Notes under the pieces: generated by a model | Told to the model about the DNA's origin: nothing | Database searches by the model: none | Seen by the model: only the letters and a program-made list of their open reading frames with translations | Program-made: the position numbers and the translations under genes | Virus record (IMG/VR): IMGVR_UViG_3300032282_004151 | Location: 1-64,000 of that record | Length of the DNA stretch: 64,000 nucleotides | Origin: a virus | Reading direction: 5' to 3' (one strand) | Shown: positions 21,457 through 35,296 of the stretch, piece after piece | Position numbering within the stretch: the stretch's first letter is position 1 | Layout: every line of letters begins with the position of its first letter

Positions 21457-21535
21457 GCTCTTGTATTGGCTCTGTCTTCTAAACAGATCGCGCATAACTG
21501 GATTAATGTGGGTTCGAGTCCCACCAAGAGCGCCA
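21457..21535 (+). ncRNA. non-canonical tRNA-Arg(TCT)-like RNA (no D arm at normal position; D-like arm after the anticodon arm)
   Basis: GCTCTTG/CAAGAGC-G-CCA acceptor; TCTGT-CTTCTAA-ACAGA; GTGGG-TTCGAGT-CCCAC. Confidence 0.7.
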
Positions 21536-30789: not shown

Positions 30790-31374
30790 ATGCCTAACTG
30801 GTGCTCAAACAACGTCGTCGTTTCTGGTAAGAACCTCAGTGCCTTCAAGGAGTGGCTTGGCGATGGCAAGGCTCTGCTGACCAAGATCGCCCCTACGCCC
30901 CAGCCTCTTGTCGAAACGACTGCTGGTTGGAGTGGCGACCCCGAGGCTCAGAAGCTGAACGATGAACGCGAGAAGGCCAACCTCAAGGAGTTTGGCTACA
31001 AGAACTGGTATGATTGGAACATCGGTGCGTGGGGCACCAAGTGGGACGTTGATGCCGAGATCGACGAAAGCAGCAGCACTGAGAATGAGATCATTTTCAG
31101 CTTTGAGAGTGCGTGGAGCCCTCCGCAGGCTGCGTTTGCTCGTCTTGCCGAGAAGTTCCCTGACCTTAGCATCCGTCATGCCTACATGGAAGAGGGTATG
31201 TGCTTTGTCGGCGTGGACACGTATGAGGACGGGGTTGTTGCTGACGAGGTCTACAGCGAAGAGCCCGATACGGACGAGTGGAAGGAGCTTGCCCGCGACG
31301 AGTTTGGTTGGGAGCCGTGGGAGGATGATGAGGACGCGGAGGATATGGAAGAGGAAAAGCCCGCGAAGAATTGA
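30790..31374 (+). CDS. DUF1281/YubB ferredoxin-like fold protein
   Basis: MPNWCSN...WYDWNI..WGTKWD...FESAWSPP. Confidence 0.8.
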   Translation: MPNWCSNNVVVSGKNLSAFKEWLGDGKALLTKIAPTPQPLVETTAGWSGDPEAQKLNDEREKANLKEFGYKNWYDWNIGAWGTKWDVDAEIDESSSTENEIIFSFESAWSPPQAAFARLAEKFPDLSIRHAYMEEGMCFVGVDTYEDGVVADEVYSEEPDTDEWKELARDEFGWEPWEDDEDAEDMEEEKPAKN

Positions 31375-31716: not shown

Positions 31717-32281
31717 TTTATTTATTTTTACAACTCTTGCGCCATTTTTATTTGGTGGCGTAGATGTACGTATTGAAGGAGCATTTGGTGTTAGGCTTGG
31801 TGATACTTACCAAGTGAATGACAAGTTAATTCAGCGAACAAGAGAATTTGAGTTTACTCCAGTTAGCTCATCTGACATTTTTCAGACATATCATGTTAAA
31901 TTAACTCCAAAAAGCCGCAAGATTTATTCCATCTCTGCTGAAGGATATGTGCAGAATGAAATTGTTTATGAAAAGATGGACAGTCTTAGGTATGAGTTGG
32001 CAAAGAAATACCTAGTGCCCAATCTTAGGTTGGACACCATCACTTCTATCATGAACAGAACCAATAGGTTGTATGTTGAAGAAGCAATTTTAACTGACGG
32101 TGGCTCAATTACATTGTCTTACCCACATTCGCCCACTCGCGGCATTTTAAATGAACCTCGCGCTCATCTAACAGCATATTCTGAAGGCAATAAGTGCGTG
32201 ATGGAAGTTGTTGATGTTGCGCTGTTTAAGCTAAGTATCCAAGAAGACGAAGAATTAAGAAAATTGCAGAATGACTCTTGA
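31694..32281 (+). CDS. secreted/periplasmic hypothetical protein
   Basis: signal-peptide-like N-terminus, GAFGVRLG. Confidence 0.6.
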   Translation: MKMKKLFNLFIFTTLAPFLFGGVDVRIEGAFGVRLGDTYQVNDKLIQRTREFEFTPVSSSDIFQTYHVKLTPKSRKIYSISAEGYVQNEIVYEKMDSLRYELAKKYLVPNLRLDTITSIMNRTNRLYVEEAILTDGGSITLSYPHSPTRGILNEPRAHLTAYSEGNKCVMEVVDVALFKLSIQEDEELRKLQNDS

Positions 32282-32314
32282 CTTTTAAAATAAGTCGTGT
32301 AGGATGTACGCACG

Positions 32315-32521
32315 ATGAAAGTCCCACTCCAAGACCTACTCACCATCATTCACGCCGACAAAAAGAGCTATATCGCCCAAGTGGGTGCTCGTGAGTATGA
32401 GTGCCTTGAGGCATTGGTGAAGGATGGCACGATCAACACCATCAAAAGTCTGATCGAGCATGGTGTGGCCATTGGCGACGATGTTTACCCCATCGCCAAG
32501 AAATACAGCAATCTGGCTTGA
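32315..32521 (+). CDS. early hypothetical protein
   Basis: own promoter. Confidence 0.6.
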   Translation: MKVPLQDLLTIIHADKKSYIAQVGAREYECLEALVKDGTINTIKSLIEHGVAIGDDVYPIAKKYSNLA

Positions 32522-32555
32522 TTTTTAAAATAAATAGGTCATACTTGTTCTCATC

Positions 32556-32837
32556 ATGAACATTGCCCAAACCATCCTTTCTCAGATCAAGGCTCTGGAT
32601 CCGATGGCTCTGTTTGCTTGGGGTGCCAAGGATCTGATCAACATGGAAAATGGTCTGAAGTTCAAGACCACTGGCATTACTCCTTACAAAGGTTATGTTT
32701 ACATCAAGCTGAATGGCAAGGACTTGTATGACATTCAGTTCTTTAAGGTTCGCAATCTTGAAGTCAAGACTGACAAGGTTGTGGAAGATGTTTATGCTGA
32801 AGATCTTGTGCGAGTCATTGATGGAGTTGTTGGTTGA
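32556..32837 (+). CDS. conserved phage hypothetical protein
   Basis: IAQTILSQI...GAK...DLYDIQF...DVY.E.L. Confidence 0.75.
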   Translation: MNIAQTILSQIKALDPMALFAWGAKDLINMENGLKFKTTGITPYKGYVYIKLNGKDLYDIQFFKVRNLEVKTDKVVEDVYAEDLVRVIDGVVG

Positions 32838-32878
32838 GCCTTGACAAATTAAAAAAAGTCGTTCAAGATATCTGCATC

Positions 32879-33013
32879 ATGAAGATCAACTCCACCATCA
32901 AGACCCGCAGCGTGTTCACCTCTGGCGTCAACCTCGGCGGTGTGGCGCACAAGACCAAGAAGGGCAAAGGCAGCTATCAACGCAAAAACAAGTATGGCAA
33001 TCGTTGGGAGTGA
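32879..33013 (+). CDS. ArfA-like (alternative ribosome rescue factor A) small protein
   Basis: 44 aa ending AHKTKKGKGSYQRKNKYGNRWE (ArfA KKGKGSY-x-RK motif); own promoter; below ORF-track cutoff. Confidence 0.65.
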   Translation: MKINSTIKTRSVFTSGVNLGGVAHKTKKGKGSYQRKNKYGNRWE

Positions 33014-33057
33014 TTGCTGTCTTGACAAATTAAAAAAAGTCCTTCATCGTCTAACCC

Positions 33058-33285
33058 ATGAAGCCAATTCGTTATAACCCTGATGGGACTGAAATCCCCC
33101 TGACTTCCGGTCAACGTCGGCGTAACGAACGTGCAAGAGTTTGCAACCGAAAAAGAGAATCGGGATGGAGCGGGGATAGACGACCATGTGATTTGGGTTG
33201 TGGTGGAGAAATGTCTTGGTGCTCTTGTTGTGAAACATACACAAGCACTTGTTGCGTAGATTACGGAACTTGTATGTGTTCGTAA
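33058..33285 (+). CDS. Cys-rich small protein
   Basis: WCSCCETY..TCCVDYGTC.CS; own promoter. Confidence 0.6.
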   Translation: MKPIRYNPDGTEIPLTSGQRRRNERARVCNRKRESGWSGDRRPCDLGCGGEMSWCSCCETYTSTCCVDYGTCMCS

Positions 33286-33292
33286 CAATTTC

Positions 33293-33352
33293 GGGCCGGT
33301 AGCTCAGTGGTAGAGCGTTTCGTCGTTGGTTCGAATCCAACCCGGTCCATCA
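33293..33352 (+). ncRNA. anticodon-arm-less tRNA-like RNA with Ala identity (G3:U70, A73)
   Basis: GGGCCGG/CCGGTCC-A; intact D arm GCTC-AGTGGTA-GAGC and T arm GTTGG-TTCGAAT-CCAAC joined by only GTTTCGTC. Confidence 0.75.
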
Positions 33353-33394
33353 ATTTTTGTTGACAAATTAAAAAAAGTAGCCATAGTTAGCACC

Positions 33395-33748
33395 ATGAAC
33401 TCCATTATCTCACCGTCTCTCGAAAACAAGCCTGTTGTGGTCAATGGACCCAAGGTGGGCGACATTCTGGTCAGCATCAGTGGCTATGAAGCCAGCATTG
33501 CTAGTTGGGCCAAGGTTGTGGGTGTGACTGGCAAGAGCGTCAAGATTGTGCGCTTGCCCGCCGACAACAAGTATACTGGCGGCGGTGGCATGGAATGGAT
33601 CAGCACGCCCGCCACTGATCGCATCAAAGGTGATACTGAGACCAAGCGTTTTACTGCTGATGGCGACGGCTATAGGGTCAAGAACAACAGCTACAGCAAC
33701 TATTATGTTTGGAGTGGCAAGCCAATTCAGTGCTACAACCATCACTAA
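33395..33748 (+). CDS. early hypothetical protein
   Basis: KVGDILVS..GYE...KVVGVTGKSVKI; own promoter. Confidence 0.7.
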   Translation: MNSIISPSLENKPVVVNGPKVGDILVSISGYEASIASWAKVVGVTGKSVKIVRLPADNKYTGGGGMEWISTPATDRIKGDTETKRFTADGDGYRVKNNSYSNYYVWSGKPIQCYNHH

Positions 33749-33758
33749 GATTTTGGGT

Positions 33759-33810
33759 TAGGTGTTCATGGTGTGAGGGGCTCGCGTGGTGGCGAGCCCC
33801 TCTTTTTTTT
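33759..33810 (+). terminator. conserved 3' element + terminator, copy 2
   Basis: same 17-mer and GTGGTG loop as 31385 with a compensated stem. Confidence 0.75.
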
Positions 33811-33855
33811 ATCTAGGTGCTTGACATTTAAAAAAAATAGGTCATAGTACTTTAC

Positions 33856-34146
33856 ATGAACCTCACCCAACCCGAAACCAACCTCGTCGCCAAGCTGACC
33901 ACCGAGTATGGTCTTTACGTCAATGACAGCCTCACGACCGCCGTGAACCGCCTGTCTGGCGCTCGCGTTCAGACAACCCCTCTTGCGGCTGCTCTGATCC
34001 GTTTCGCCCAGATCGCCTACGGCAACTATGAGTTGTTTGGCAAGATGAGCGTCAAGAACAAGCCTGTGAGCATCAGCATGTATGACCGCGTGCGGTATCT
34101 TGTGCTCAAGCTGGACCGCAATGCTTATGCCGAAGTGCTTGACTAA
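33856..34146 (+). CDS. early hypothetical protein
   Basis: own promoter. Confidence 0.65.
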   Translation: MNLTQPETNLVAKLTTEYGLYVNDSLTTAVNRLSGARVQTTPLAAALIRFAQIAYGNYELFGKMSVKNKPVSISMYDRVRYLVLKLDRNAYAEVLD

Positions 34147-34223
34147 CAACAAGAGGAGCAAAGGCTCCTCTTTTTTTTAACTTGGTACTTGCACTTTTAA
34201 AATAAATAGATCATAGTATTCCC

Positions 34224-34412
34224 ATGATGAACACCACCGCCAACTACGCCAGCTATCGCCTCCTCTCCAATGGTCGCTGCATTGGGGAGATCAGCTTCCC
34301 CAACAACACCGTCAACGCCAACTTTGGTGGGGTCTGCTTCTATGACCCTGTTACGGGCACCTTCCTTGGCACCACCAACGTCAACGGCTTTGTCCTTGAG
34401 CGGGTCGAGTGA
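34224..34412 (+). CDS. early hypothetical protein
   Basis: own promoter; last gene of array. Confidence 0.55.
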   Translation: MMNTTANYASYRLLSNGRCIGEISFPNNTVNANFGGVCFYDPVTGTFLGTTNVNGFVLERVE

Positions 34413-34786
34413 CCCCACCCCCATACGGGTGGGGCGGGGGTGTAGGGCTTTAACCCCCCACCCCTCCCCCCTCTAGGTGGGGGTTTAGGTGACTTCTAGG
34501 TGGGGTAAACCCCCCTCCCCCCTACCGGGCCATATACACTTTATTGTTAAGGTCAATTTTTCTATCAACTTTTCATATATACGGTTATTCAAGTTTAAGA
34601 TATTACCTTCTATCCTTTATACTTTTTCATATACCATCTTTTTACCTTATGTTAGTCTATTTTTAGATTTTAAATTTTTGAAATTTTGTATATAGGATTT
34701 TTGTATATACGATCTCTATTTTTAAAATTTACACAGGTCAATTTTTTCTTATGGAAATTTTGTATATACAGTTTTTGTATATACAG
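34411..34786. repeat. G/C-tract block followed by AT-rich repeats
   Basis: GGGTGGGGCGGGGGTGTAGGG; CTAGGTGGGG x2; TTTTGTATATA x4; AGGTCAATTTTT x2. Confidence 0.75.
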
Positions 34787-34788
34787 TT

Positions 34789-35296
34789 TCACTTTATACC
34801 CATATTCATCATAAGGCGTATTATAGCTTTACGATGTGCTAATGGCAGTTTAAAGAATTCTTCTATGCCCGTTGCCCATAGTTCATCATTATTGCTCATA
34901 CCATAATCATTTACCCAATTATGTATGTTCTTGAGATATTTTCTATGAAATTCAAAATCCTTGCCGCCTATGCCAGATGAAAATTCATCTTTTACTTTCT
35001 TTATTGCTGCTGGTGATTTTAGGTTTTGAAATGTACCCATTATAGAAAAATCTGATGGTTTAAGATCATTACTTACCCATAGATAATCGTATATATCTGA
35101 TACAGAGTTAGATATATTGTTGTATAGCTCTGGATTTTTAGCTAGTTCAATTAGCACCTCTTTTTATATTGTACATATCTTTTTTAGATACAGAGGTGTC
35201 GATATATACAGAAAACATTGGCGCATCAAACAAATGAATTTGATTTTTTCTGTTTTTGAATTTGCCTTCAATCAAAGATATAAGCTTTATGTGCAT
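34789..35296 (-). pseudogene. late gene split by a 1-nt frameshift (head-internal-type protein)
   Basis: TATTTATA then MHIKLISLIEGK...; frame breaks in A-run near 35161-35165, continues as EVLIELAKNPE. Confidence 0.5.

Follow-up and report, generated by a model that had tools for sequence, protein, structure and literature searches.

The transfer RNA (tRNA)-like element at positions 33293-33352 of the viral stretch analyzed here is very probably a functional RNA that is paired with a small cysteine-rich protein encoded just upstream of it. The stretch, which we refer to as the window, comprises 64,000 nucleotides (nt), positions 1 to 64,000 of the 72,316-base IMG/VR record IMGVR_UViG_3300032282_004151 (CheckV completeness 23%), and is a fragment of a giant phage. 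The element resembles a tRNA(Ala) without an anticodon arm, and together with the preceding 75-residue (75-aa) open reading frame (ORF) it makes up what we call the cassette. Comparison of predicted genes across loci showed the cassette to be accessory and virus-restricted, with an RNA that abuts the genes of one protein family independently of their order.

The sequence of the element with its trailer (33293-33352) is GGGCCGGTAGCTCAGTGGTAGAGCGTTTCGTCGTTGGTTCGAATCCAACCCGGTCCATCA; it lies on the + strand, as do the 75-aa ORF, the promoter-like sites beside it, the ArfA-like ORF and the terminator-like hairpin described below. The tRNA-like RNA itself spans 57 nt (33293-33349) and consists of an acceptor stem of seven pairs, the third of which is G:U (33293-33299 with 33342-33348), U8 and A9 (33300-33301), a 4-bp D stem (33302-33305 with 33313-33316) with a 7-nt loop containing GG, an unpaired 8-nt linker in place of the anticodon arm (33317-33324), a 5-bp T stem with the loop TTCGAAT (33325-33329 with 33337-33341), and the discriminator A73 (33349). 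A TCA trailer (33350-33352) occupies the CCA position. The Rfam tRNA model scored the element at 49.3 bits (gathering score 29), with an E-value of 1.6e-7 over the whole window, and in the resulting alignment 17 model positions, corresponding to the anticodon arm, were replaced by 3 in the element. The minimum-energy fold was exactly the three-way junction of acceptor, D and T arms (ensemble frequency 0.76, z -2.84). Both results bear out the sequence-only reading of this DNA, in which flawless acceptor, D and T arms had been described together with an 8-nt replacement of the anticodon arm. Among canonical tRNA features, the 7-bp acceptor, the D arm and the T arm with a TTCRA loop are all present, and an anticodon stem-loop with an anticodon is absent; ARAGORN, run on the window, did not call the element. 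The same reading had listed G1-C72, G2-C71, G3:U70, A73 and a 3′ TCA, all of which can be read directly in 33293-33352. The first four of these make up the identity set of alanyl-tRNA synthetase (AlaRS), which recognizes G3:U70 and A73 and not the anticodon.

A covariance model (R1) was built from seven elements, and 21 distinct sequences were aligned to it (alignment A7). The window element scored 79.3 bits against R1. In the alignment, 99.1% of cells were paired, compared with 74.5% after shuffling and 40-52% when partners were slid by 1-3 columns, and 13 of the 16 pairs had changed on both sides. The tRNA-model E-value and the existence of a 21-member family with covariation together argue that the element is more than a chance resemblance. 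U8, A14, the D-loop GG and the T-loop TTCGA are nearly invariant, so that the tRNA elbow should form. Of the 21 linkers, 19 measure 8-10 nt and the remaining two 13 and 18 nt, and no cryptic anticodon stem-loop of normal size was found in the family members. There is free variation in the T stem and at acceptor pairs 4-7, yet 15 of 20 members have G:U at 3:70, and 19 of 20 have G-C at 2:71, with A as discriminator likewise in 19 of 20. A single transition would give a stronger pair at 3:70, yet the wobble has been kept amid this turnover, which points to selection on the AlaRS identity element. By comparison, G:U occupies 3:70 in only 4 of 36 other anticodon-less elements with a well-formed acceptor, described below (Fisher p 2e-6, uncorrected for relatedness). 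The family of 21, its covariation and the frequency of G3:U70 thus sustain the earlier proposal of a selected non-decoding tRNA-like RNA with an alanine identity set, and on this comparative evidence the element is such an RNA rather than a pseudogene or an assembly error.

Two observations could be explained by decay of a tRNA-Ala gene or by a deletion made in assembly: the element resembles a tRNA-Ala apart from the anticodon-arm gap, and it is absent from the closest relatives. When aligned with the normal tRNA-Ala(UGC) of the nearest complete relative, the 297-kb phage G001 with its 34 tRNAs, the element matched except for a 15-column gap over the anticodon stem-loop, which suggests that it descended from a phage tRNA-Ala. 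We nevertheless find decay or deletion scarcely credible, given 21 distinct sequences on unrelated contigs, full pairing and compensatory changes. The sequence-only reading had asked that relatives be checked for the same deletion, and all 21 distinct sequences lacked the anticodon arm; because these independent relatives share the architecture, an assembly artefact is excluded. It had also asked for a check of raw reads, which was answered in part: sequencing run X1, the only run to cover the element, contains an identical 499-nt unitig (32948-33446) at a depth of 31, although this run is probably the source sample itself. A separate candidate explanation, a phage attachment (attP) or integration site, was rejected, as both tRNA halves are present, the stems covary, and the contigs are those of lytic-type jumbo phages.

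The protein partner emerged from two sets of scans. When viral contigs were first scanned for D arms with a T arm 3-14 nt further on, ten loci were recovered, and G3:U70 and A73 were present in two of these (L012 and L014). In these two, as in the window, the element starts 7 nt past the stop codon of an ORF ending in CC(V/Q)D(Y/W)GTCMCS. Protein-anchored scans then covered 9 viral and 37 metagenome loci, 47 in total including the window, and in 31 of these model R1 detected a short tRNA-like of 45-67 nt, encoded on the same strand as the gene. Spacing was measured in 22 distinct RNA-bearing loci. The RNA starts 4-8 nt past the stop codon in 10 of them, and in 10 others the start codon lies 7-15 nt past the discriminator; in L047, where the RNA is cut by the contig end, upstream-type adjacency was deduced from the start codon. 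The sole exception is L029, with the RNA 288 nt downstream, so that 21 of 22 loci have the two abutting. In each of 5 larger genomes there is exactly one short tRNA-like, located beside the partner gene, and no other neighboring protein family was common to more than 4 loci. The window has all components of the cassette: an ORF ending in CCxDYGTCxCS, a basic arm, and an abutting short tRNA-like on the same strand. Judging from this conservation, the partner of the RNA is the adjacent 75-aa Cys-rich ORF. One complete 210.7-kb phage (G006; L308 and L309, with L309:4079-4447) carries the cassette, 25 tRNAs and its own transfer-messenger RNA (tmRNA; tag GNTLKLAA); ARAGORN found no normal tRNA-Ala, Met or Thr in its 17-56.5 kb region. 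A normal tRNA-Ala(UGC) is present in G001, which is without the cassette.

Such close abutment may also be indicative of a cis-acting role, in which the tRNA-like serves as punctuation: RNase P and RNase Z cuts at the tRNA shape would determine where the mini-protein mRNA ends (3′) or begins (5′), and the excised RNA would be functionless. The element lies within 15 nt of the ORF on either side, and in the window no terminator occurs before 33775. In the upstream-type arrangement the cut would leave a leader of 7-15 nt without a Shine-Dalgarno sequence, matching the leaderless style of the phage, and other anticodon-less elements also abut ORFs. We consider this explanation rather improbable, as it leaves unexplained the retention of G3:U70 in 15 of 20 members, the perfect split in arm charge described below, and the one-per-genome association with a single protein family.

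The 75-aa protein (33058-33285) has a basic N-terminal arm, a zinc-ribbon-like CxxxC..CxxC and the C-terminus CCVDYGTCMCS. Its stop codon is separated from G1 of the RNA by a 7-nt spacer (33286-33292) at which cleavage by RNase P is expected. The arm has a net charge of +7. The AlphaFold2 model (predicted local distance difference test score, pLDDT, 76) has a helix at residues 17-35 and short zinc-ribbon-like strands, and its last ten residues are poorly modelled. A homology search returned 34 homologues, all without names, and an exhaustive profile search returned 144 representative clusters at E <= 0.001. The family is defined by a conserved 8-Cys module, CxxCGGxMxWCxxCxx(Y/W)TxTCCVDYGTCMCS, located C-terminally in nearly all clusters, and by a variable N-terminus. 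We found nothing similar in Pfam, PHROGs, a PDB sequence search or Foldseek, and no relatives in 185,579 prokaryote genomes; within the reach of these searches, the family is phage-only and unannotated. Six longer homologues were either acidic forms or ORFs read through an upstream tRNA-like. There was no informative fusion among them, apart from a weak hint of a DnaJ-type zinc finger (17.6 bits against a cut-off of 32.7). Current phage annotation does not show the cassette, since tRNA gene finders miss the RNA genes and the partner lacks a family, a name and any fold match.

Cys, Ser and Thr abound in the conserved C-terminus of the protein, whose fold is poorly predicted, and the RNA retains alanine identity without decoding. 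These features would fit an RNA acting as alanine donor in a non-ribosomal reaction, such as alanylation or another tRNA-dependent modification of the C-terminal peptide like that of ribosomally synthesized and post-translationally modified peptides (RiPPs). This possibility is very unlikely in our view. No enzyme gene is conserved beside the cassette, RNA-less forms of the protein have the same C-terminus, and RiPP precursors usually show the opposite of a conserved “core” behind a variable N-terminus.

We asked whether the variable N-terminus relates to the presence of the RNA, taking as arm charge the net charge summed over all residues except the last 32. Arm charge was +5 to +12 in all 22 non-redundant loci with the RNA and 0 to -12 in all 14 loci without it, L060 being left out as its N-terminus is cut by the contig end (Mann-Whitney p 6e-7, a value that ignores phylogeny). 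Over 151 family members the distribution was bimodal, with 51 members at +4 or more and 75 at -4 or less. RNA-less members (L048, L051, L057, L062, L064, L065) have acidic N-termini, often with an extra CxxC..CxxC domain, and L048 has two tandem copies of the RNA-less family gene (862-1362). We speculate that an acidic domain replacing both arm and RNA could be a protein mimic of the RNA. A related arm also occurs with another head. ORFs in L084 (240-476), L108, L127 and L141 combine a basic arm with a different Cys-rich end, ..PCNGDC, and in these four loci non-Ala anticodon-less elements start 4-7 nt past the ORFs; the L084 arm is 57% identical over 42 aa to that of family member P0009 (E 4e-9). 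The basic arm therefore appears to travel with the tRNA-like whatever the head, and this comparative observation is our main argument for inferring that the arm binds the RNA. Two loci, L089 and L085, are also counted with this second, PCNGDC-type group of small proteins. An arm motif resembling Y-x-A-E-x-x-R-R, counted by reading the sequences, accompanied non-Ala RNAs in 6 of 6 cases and Ala-type RNAs in 0 of 14.

Putting these features together, we tentatively propose that the cassette encodes a tRNA-decoy ribonucleoprotein (RNP) used in host takeover or counter-defence, a role that we consider quite possible, if short of probable. An early promoter would drive joint transcription of the RNA and the neighboring 8-Cys mini-protein gene, and the RNA would be released by host RNase P cutting at G1, with a 3′ endonuclease and the CCA-adding enzyme acting at A73. 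It would fold as the acceptor/T/D “upper half” of a tRNA, non-decoding for want of an anticodon arm. AlaRS should recognize it through the acceptor-stem identity set kept in most members. The basic N-terminal arm would bind the RNA, probably on the side opened by the missing arm, as SmpB does on tmRNA, and the resulting RNP would present a tRNA acceptor end that is inert in decoding. It could then act as a decoy, or compete as a ligand, for a host factor that holds (aminoacyl-)tRNA by its acceptor-T-elbow half, with the Cys-rich head supplying the targeting; this factor may be a tRNA-directed defence or toxin, or alternatively a component of ribosome rescue. We infer each of these steps, from co-transcription, excision, CCA addition and alanylation to arm binding and action on a host factor. 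If the RNA is indeed charged and bound by its neighbor's product, it would be a natural, compact, aminoacylatable tRNA mimic kept out of decoding, of which tmRNA is to our knowledge the only well-known example so far. This would bear on how phages manipulate the tRNA-handling machinery, including ribosome rescue, tRNA-directed immunity, AlaRS and EF-Tu.

None of the known systems that we compared has the architecture or the protein of the cassette, and no anticodon-less phage tRNA paired with such a protein was found described in literature outside subscription journals and supplements. The minihelix and microhelix of tRNA-Ala are AlaRS substrates by virtue of G3:U70 and A73, without the anticodon. 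They are laboratory constructs, whereas the cassette RNA would be a natural gene product that retains the D arm and the elbow. In E. coli, smpB adjoins ssrA. The likeness of tmRNA and SmpB to the cassette extends to the acceptor stem, G3:U70, the T arm, the lack of an anticodon arm and a small basic protein encoded adjacently, and in the view given in PMC4131195 SmpB takes the place of the missing arm on tmRNA. In contrast to tmRNA, the element has only 8 nt between the D and T arms, hence no mRNA-like tag frame or pseudoknots, and its D arm is fully canonical; the window had no tmRNA match at the Rfam gathering score, and the protein shows no similarity to SmpB (no Pfam match). The tRNA-like domain (TLD)-only ssrA of mycobacteriophage DS6A, “little more than the TLD” (PMC4131195), is likewise a phage-encoded TLD-like RNA. 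The same source, citing Mao et al. (2009), states that tmRNA is strongly inhibited by a molecule of this kind, possibly through titration of SmpB. The DS6A RNA derives from tmRNA, whereas the cassette RNA would derive from tRNA-Ala and has a dedicated protein; in addition, G006 has both the cassette and a full tmRNA.

Two further systems share some features with the cassette. YrlA is described in PMC4201824 as a tRNA mimic with D and T arms that is modified and processed by tRNA enzymes and is also found in phages. In YrlA a Ro-binding helix carries the arms in permuted order (T, closed acceptor-like hairpin, D), with Rsr/Ro60 as partner, whereas the cassette RNA has open 5′ and 3′ ends and the normal order 5′-acceptor-D-T-acceptor-3′; YrlA gave no match in the window, nor any at E <= 1 in 33200-33450. 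AcrIIIA1, as presented in PMC11662646, is a small phage protein that forms an RNP with host t(m)RNA fragments and has anti-CRISPR activity. The likeness lies in a small phage protein acting with pieces of tRNA or tmRNA against host immunity, but AcrIIIA1 uses fragments from the host whereas a phage with the cassette encodes its own RNA, and the two proteins are unrelated.

The resemblance to tmRNA-SmpB raises the possibility of a minimal analogue, in which the Ala-charged RNA, its absent anticodon arm substituted by the mini-protein, would enter empty-A-site ribosomes independently of a codon. It would either take over the nascent chain, with drop-off or a release factor then freeing the ribosome (rescue or Ala tailing), or block host trans-translation. 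The RNA shares its identity set with tmRNA, and a small basic protein gene is adjacent; in the window the cassette shares one terminator-bounded unit with an ArfA-like ORF; the tmRNA of G006 lies 13 kb upstream of its cassette, and the element of L006 is located beside a permuted tmRNA. The Rfam tmRNA model scored 32.3 bits on the L022 element, but this falls short of the gathering score (47), and the RNA has a canonical tRNA D arm and lacks a reading frame. Moreover, ArfA is linked in only 1 of 47 loci, SmpB is absent from 5 of 5 genomes, the CCA is mostly not encoded, G3:U70 is missing in 5 of 20 members, and RNA-less acidic proteins exist. We therefore regard such an analogue as unlikely, though worth keeping in view. 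Its most far-reaching form is unlikely too, in which a tRNA-Ala gene and a zinc-knot mini-protein would have been turned by phages into a reduced version of tmRNA-SmpB, able to free or jam stalled ribosomes, with the arm and the tRNA-like portable across Cys-rich heads. If a ribosomal role were true, it would be close to categorically new.

Several observations weigh against the decoy RNP, or against parts of the pairing on which it rests. The first group concerns the protein. No tRNA of any kind was found by R1 or ARAGORN beside the gene in 15 of the 47 loci, and in L059 the partner gene is followed 5 nt downstream by a normal tRNA-Asp, so the Cys-rich head evidently works without the RNA. 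Conversely, the 500 nt around at least one Ala-type element (L126) encode no member of the protein family. Structure prediction gave pLDDT below 50 for the most conserved portion of the protein. Six close relatives of the window phage are without the cassette, which is therefore dispensable. The second group concerns the RNA, and its points on the 3′ end and on G3:U70 also speak against charging being strictly required. The element ends in TCA whereas all seven window tRNAs scored by Rfam are followed by CCA, and within the family the encoded 3′ triplet is CCA in only 6 of 20 members (TCA in 5, CTT in 4, others in 5). The five members of 20 without G3:U70 have other acceptor stems, several starting with UGCG, and L022 and L039 agree with each other in arm and linker but not in acceptor stem; alanine identity is thus not obligatory. 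Statistical caution applies as well: A7 is an alignment fitted to the model, the loci are related to one another, and no p-value takes phylogeny into account. The full tmRNA of G006 fits badly with a plain role as SmpB sponge. Finally, independent DNA and RNA sequencing runs (X4, X16 and X20) cover only 33423-33769, the neighboring gene of relatives.

The sequence-only reading had coupled the RNA to a different protein. An ArfA-like ORF of 44 aa (32879-33013) lies 280 nt from the element at 33293, as stated there, within the same terminator-bounded unit and with its own promoter copy at 32841. It matches the Pfam ArfA model PF03889 with an E-value of 3.9e-5 and 23.4 bits (cut-off 25.5), over profile positions 28-43 only; the match is restricted to the C-terminal KGKGSY-type part of the model. 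We examined six relative loci, defined by a 117-aa protein at 92-94% identity. Three of these (L015, L016 and L019) have kept the ArfA-like gene, with a different middle ORF and no tRNA-like there, and the other three have other inserts in the slot. In G001, the 34 tRNA matches are all 71-104 nt long. An ArfA-type motif occurred in only 1 of the 47 partner-gene loci, that of the window, and PF03889 was absent from all three cassette-bearing genomes that are at least 90% complete. By these comparisons the ArfA-like ORF fails as a conserved partner of the RNA, and the expected linkage of the two in related phages was not upheld. What stands of the proposed undescribed two-part system is that the RNA is one half of one; the ArfA-like gene is not the other. 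Apart from the distance of 280 nt within one transcription unit, a functional pair with the ArfA-like protein could draw on a weak ArfA-like match in G010 (14.1 bits, about 9 kb from the cassette). With the gene present without the RNA in L015, L016 and L019 and no ArfA match in any of the three near-complete genomes, it is most improbable.

The cassette RNA belongs within a broader set of elements. We searched for the DNA pattern GGTAGAGC followed by 8-17 nt and GTTCGANTC, which matched at least 121 viral stretches, 80 of which were examined. In these 80 viral loci R1 gave 52 matches (48 distinct) at the pattern site. Excluding the Cys-linked L128, 36 of the matches had a well-formed acceptor (at least 6 of 7 pairs), and the rest were partial or poorly paired. 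The same pattern in prokaryote genomes yielded mostly chance matches, with one full-length match in 80 examined loci (L237), in a Lacticaseibacillus genome beside tRNAs. As classified here, the window element falls in an Ala-type, Cys-protein-linked subclass of this wider class. With dozens of members in viral contigs, varied acceptors and almost none in cells, the class suggests a hidden non-decoding fraction of phage “tRNA” content. Other anticodon-less elements were within 30 nt of an ORF in 12 of 35 cases upstream and 18 of 35 downstream. Individual members occur in diverse settings. An anticodon-less tRNA-like lies 3 nt past (3′ of) a GOLLD RNA (263 bits) in L010:1100-1550; another is beside a tRNA and the permuted tmRNA in L006:1490-2186; and L005 has a YrlA-like permuted form. 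In L124 and L118, elements with an ATCCC(C/T)T acceptor are followed after 20-25 nt by ORFs that start with MV(M/V)MPRKPDERI and are at least 154 aa long.

The genomic setting of the cassette was analyzed in the window itself; the “phages” collection gave no match to window 32000-35000 by megablast or to an 841-aa ORF by tblastn. About 30 small ORFs at roughly 13-34 kb each follow a TTGAC[AT] motif, a spacer of 16-18 nt and a weak -10 site. In these ORFs (e.g., sites 32841, 33022, 33360 and 33821) the ATG lies 4-10 nt past the -10 site, leaving no room for a Shine-Dalgarno sequence. These features suggest that 13000-34000 is an early region with leaderless or near-leaderless mRNAs. The 19-mer promoter core TTGACAAATTAAAAAAAGT has three exact copies (32841, 33022 and 33360), compared with 0.09 expected. 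The promoter-like site at 33022-33057 (TTGACA, 17 nt, weak -10) ends 6-9 nt before the ATG of the Cys-rich ORF and would give a leaderless or near-leaderless mRNA for it; the next, at 33360-33394, precedes the 117-aa ORF (33395-33748). Since the first intrinsic-terminator-like hairpin after the three promoters is located at 33775-33802, the ArfA-like ORF, the 75-aa ORF, the tRNA-like and the 117-aa ORF are predicted to form one unit. A tRNA-like inside such a polycistronic unit would therefore have to be released by a cut on either side. The slot between the ArfA-like and 117-aa genes holds different ORFs in close relatives (L015-L020), each flanked by copies of the promoter repeat, and this suggests that cassettes have been exchanged at the promoter repeats in the slot 33022-33360.

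The window also contains ordinary tRNAs, six called by ARAGORN and seven scored by the Rfam tRNA model. The locus at 21457-21532 scored 38.1 bits with the Rfam model, is followed by CCA and has an irregular D region; it was not called by ARAGORN. Upstream of the cassette, an ORF at 30790-31374 encodes a DUF1281_C / Api92-like ferredoxin-like domain (E 8.7e-15).

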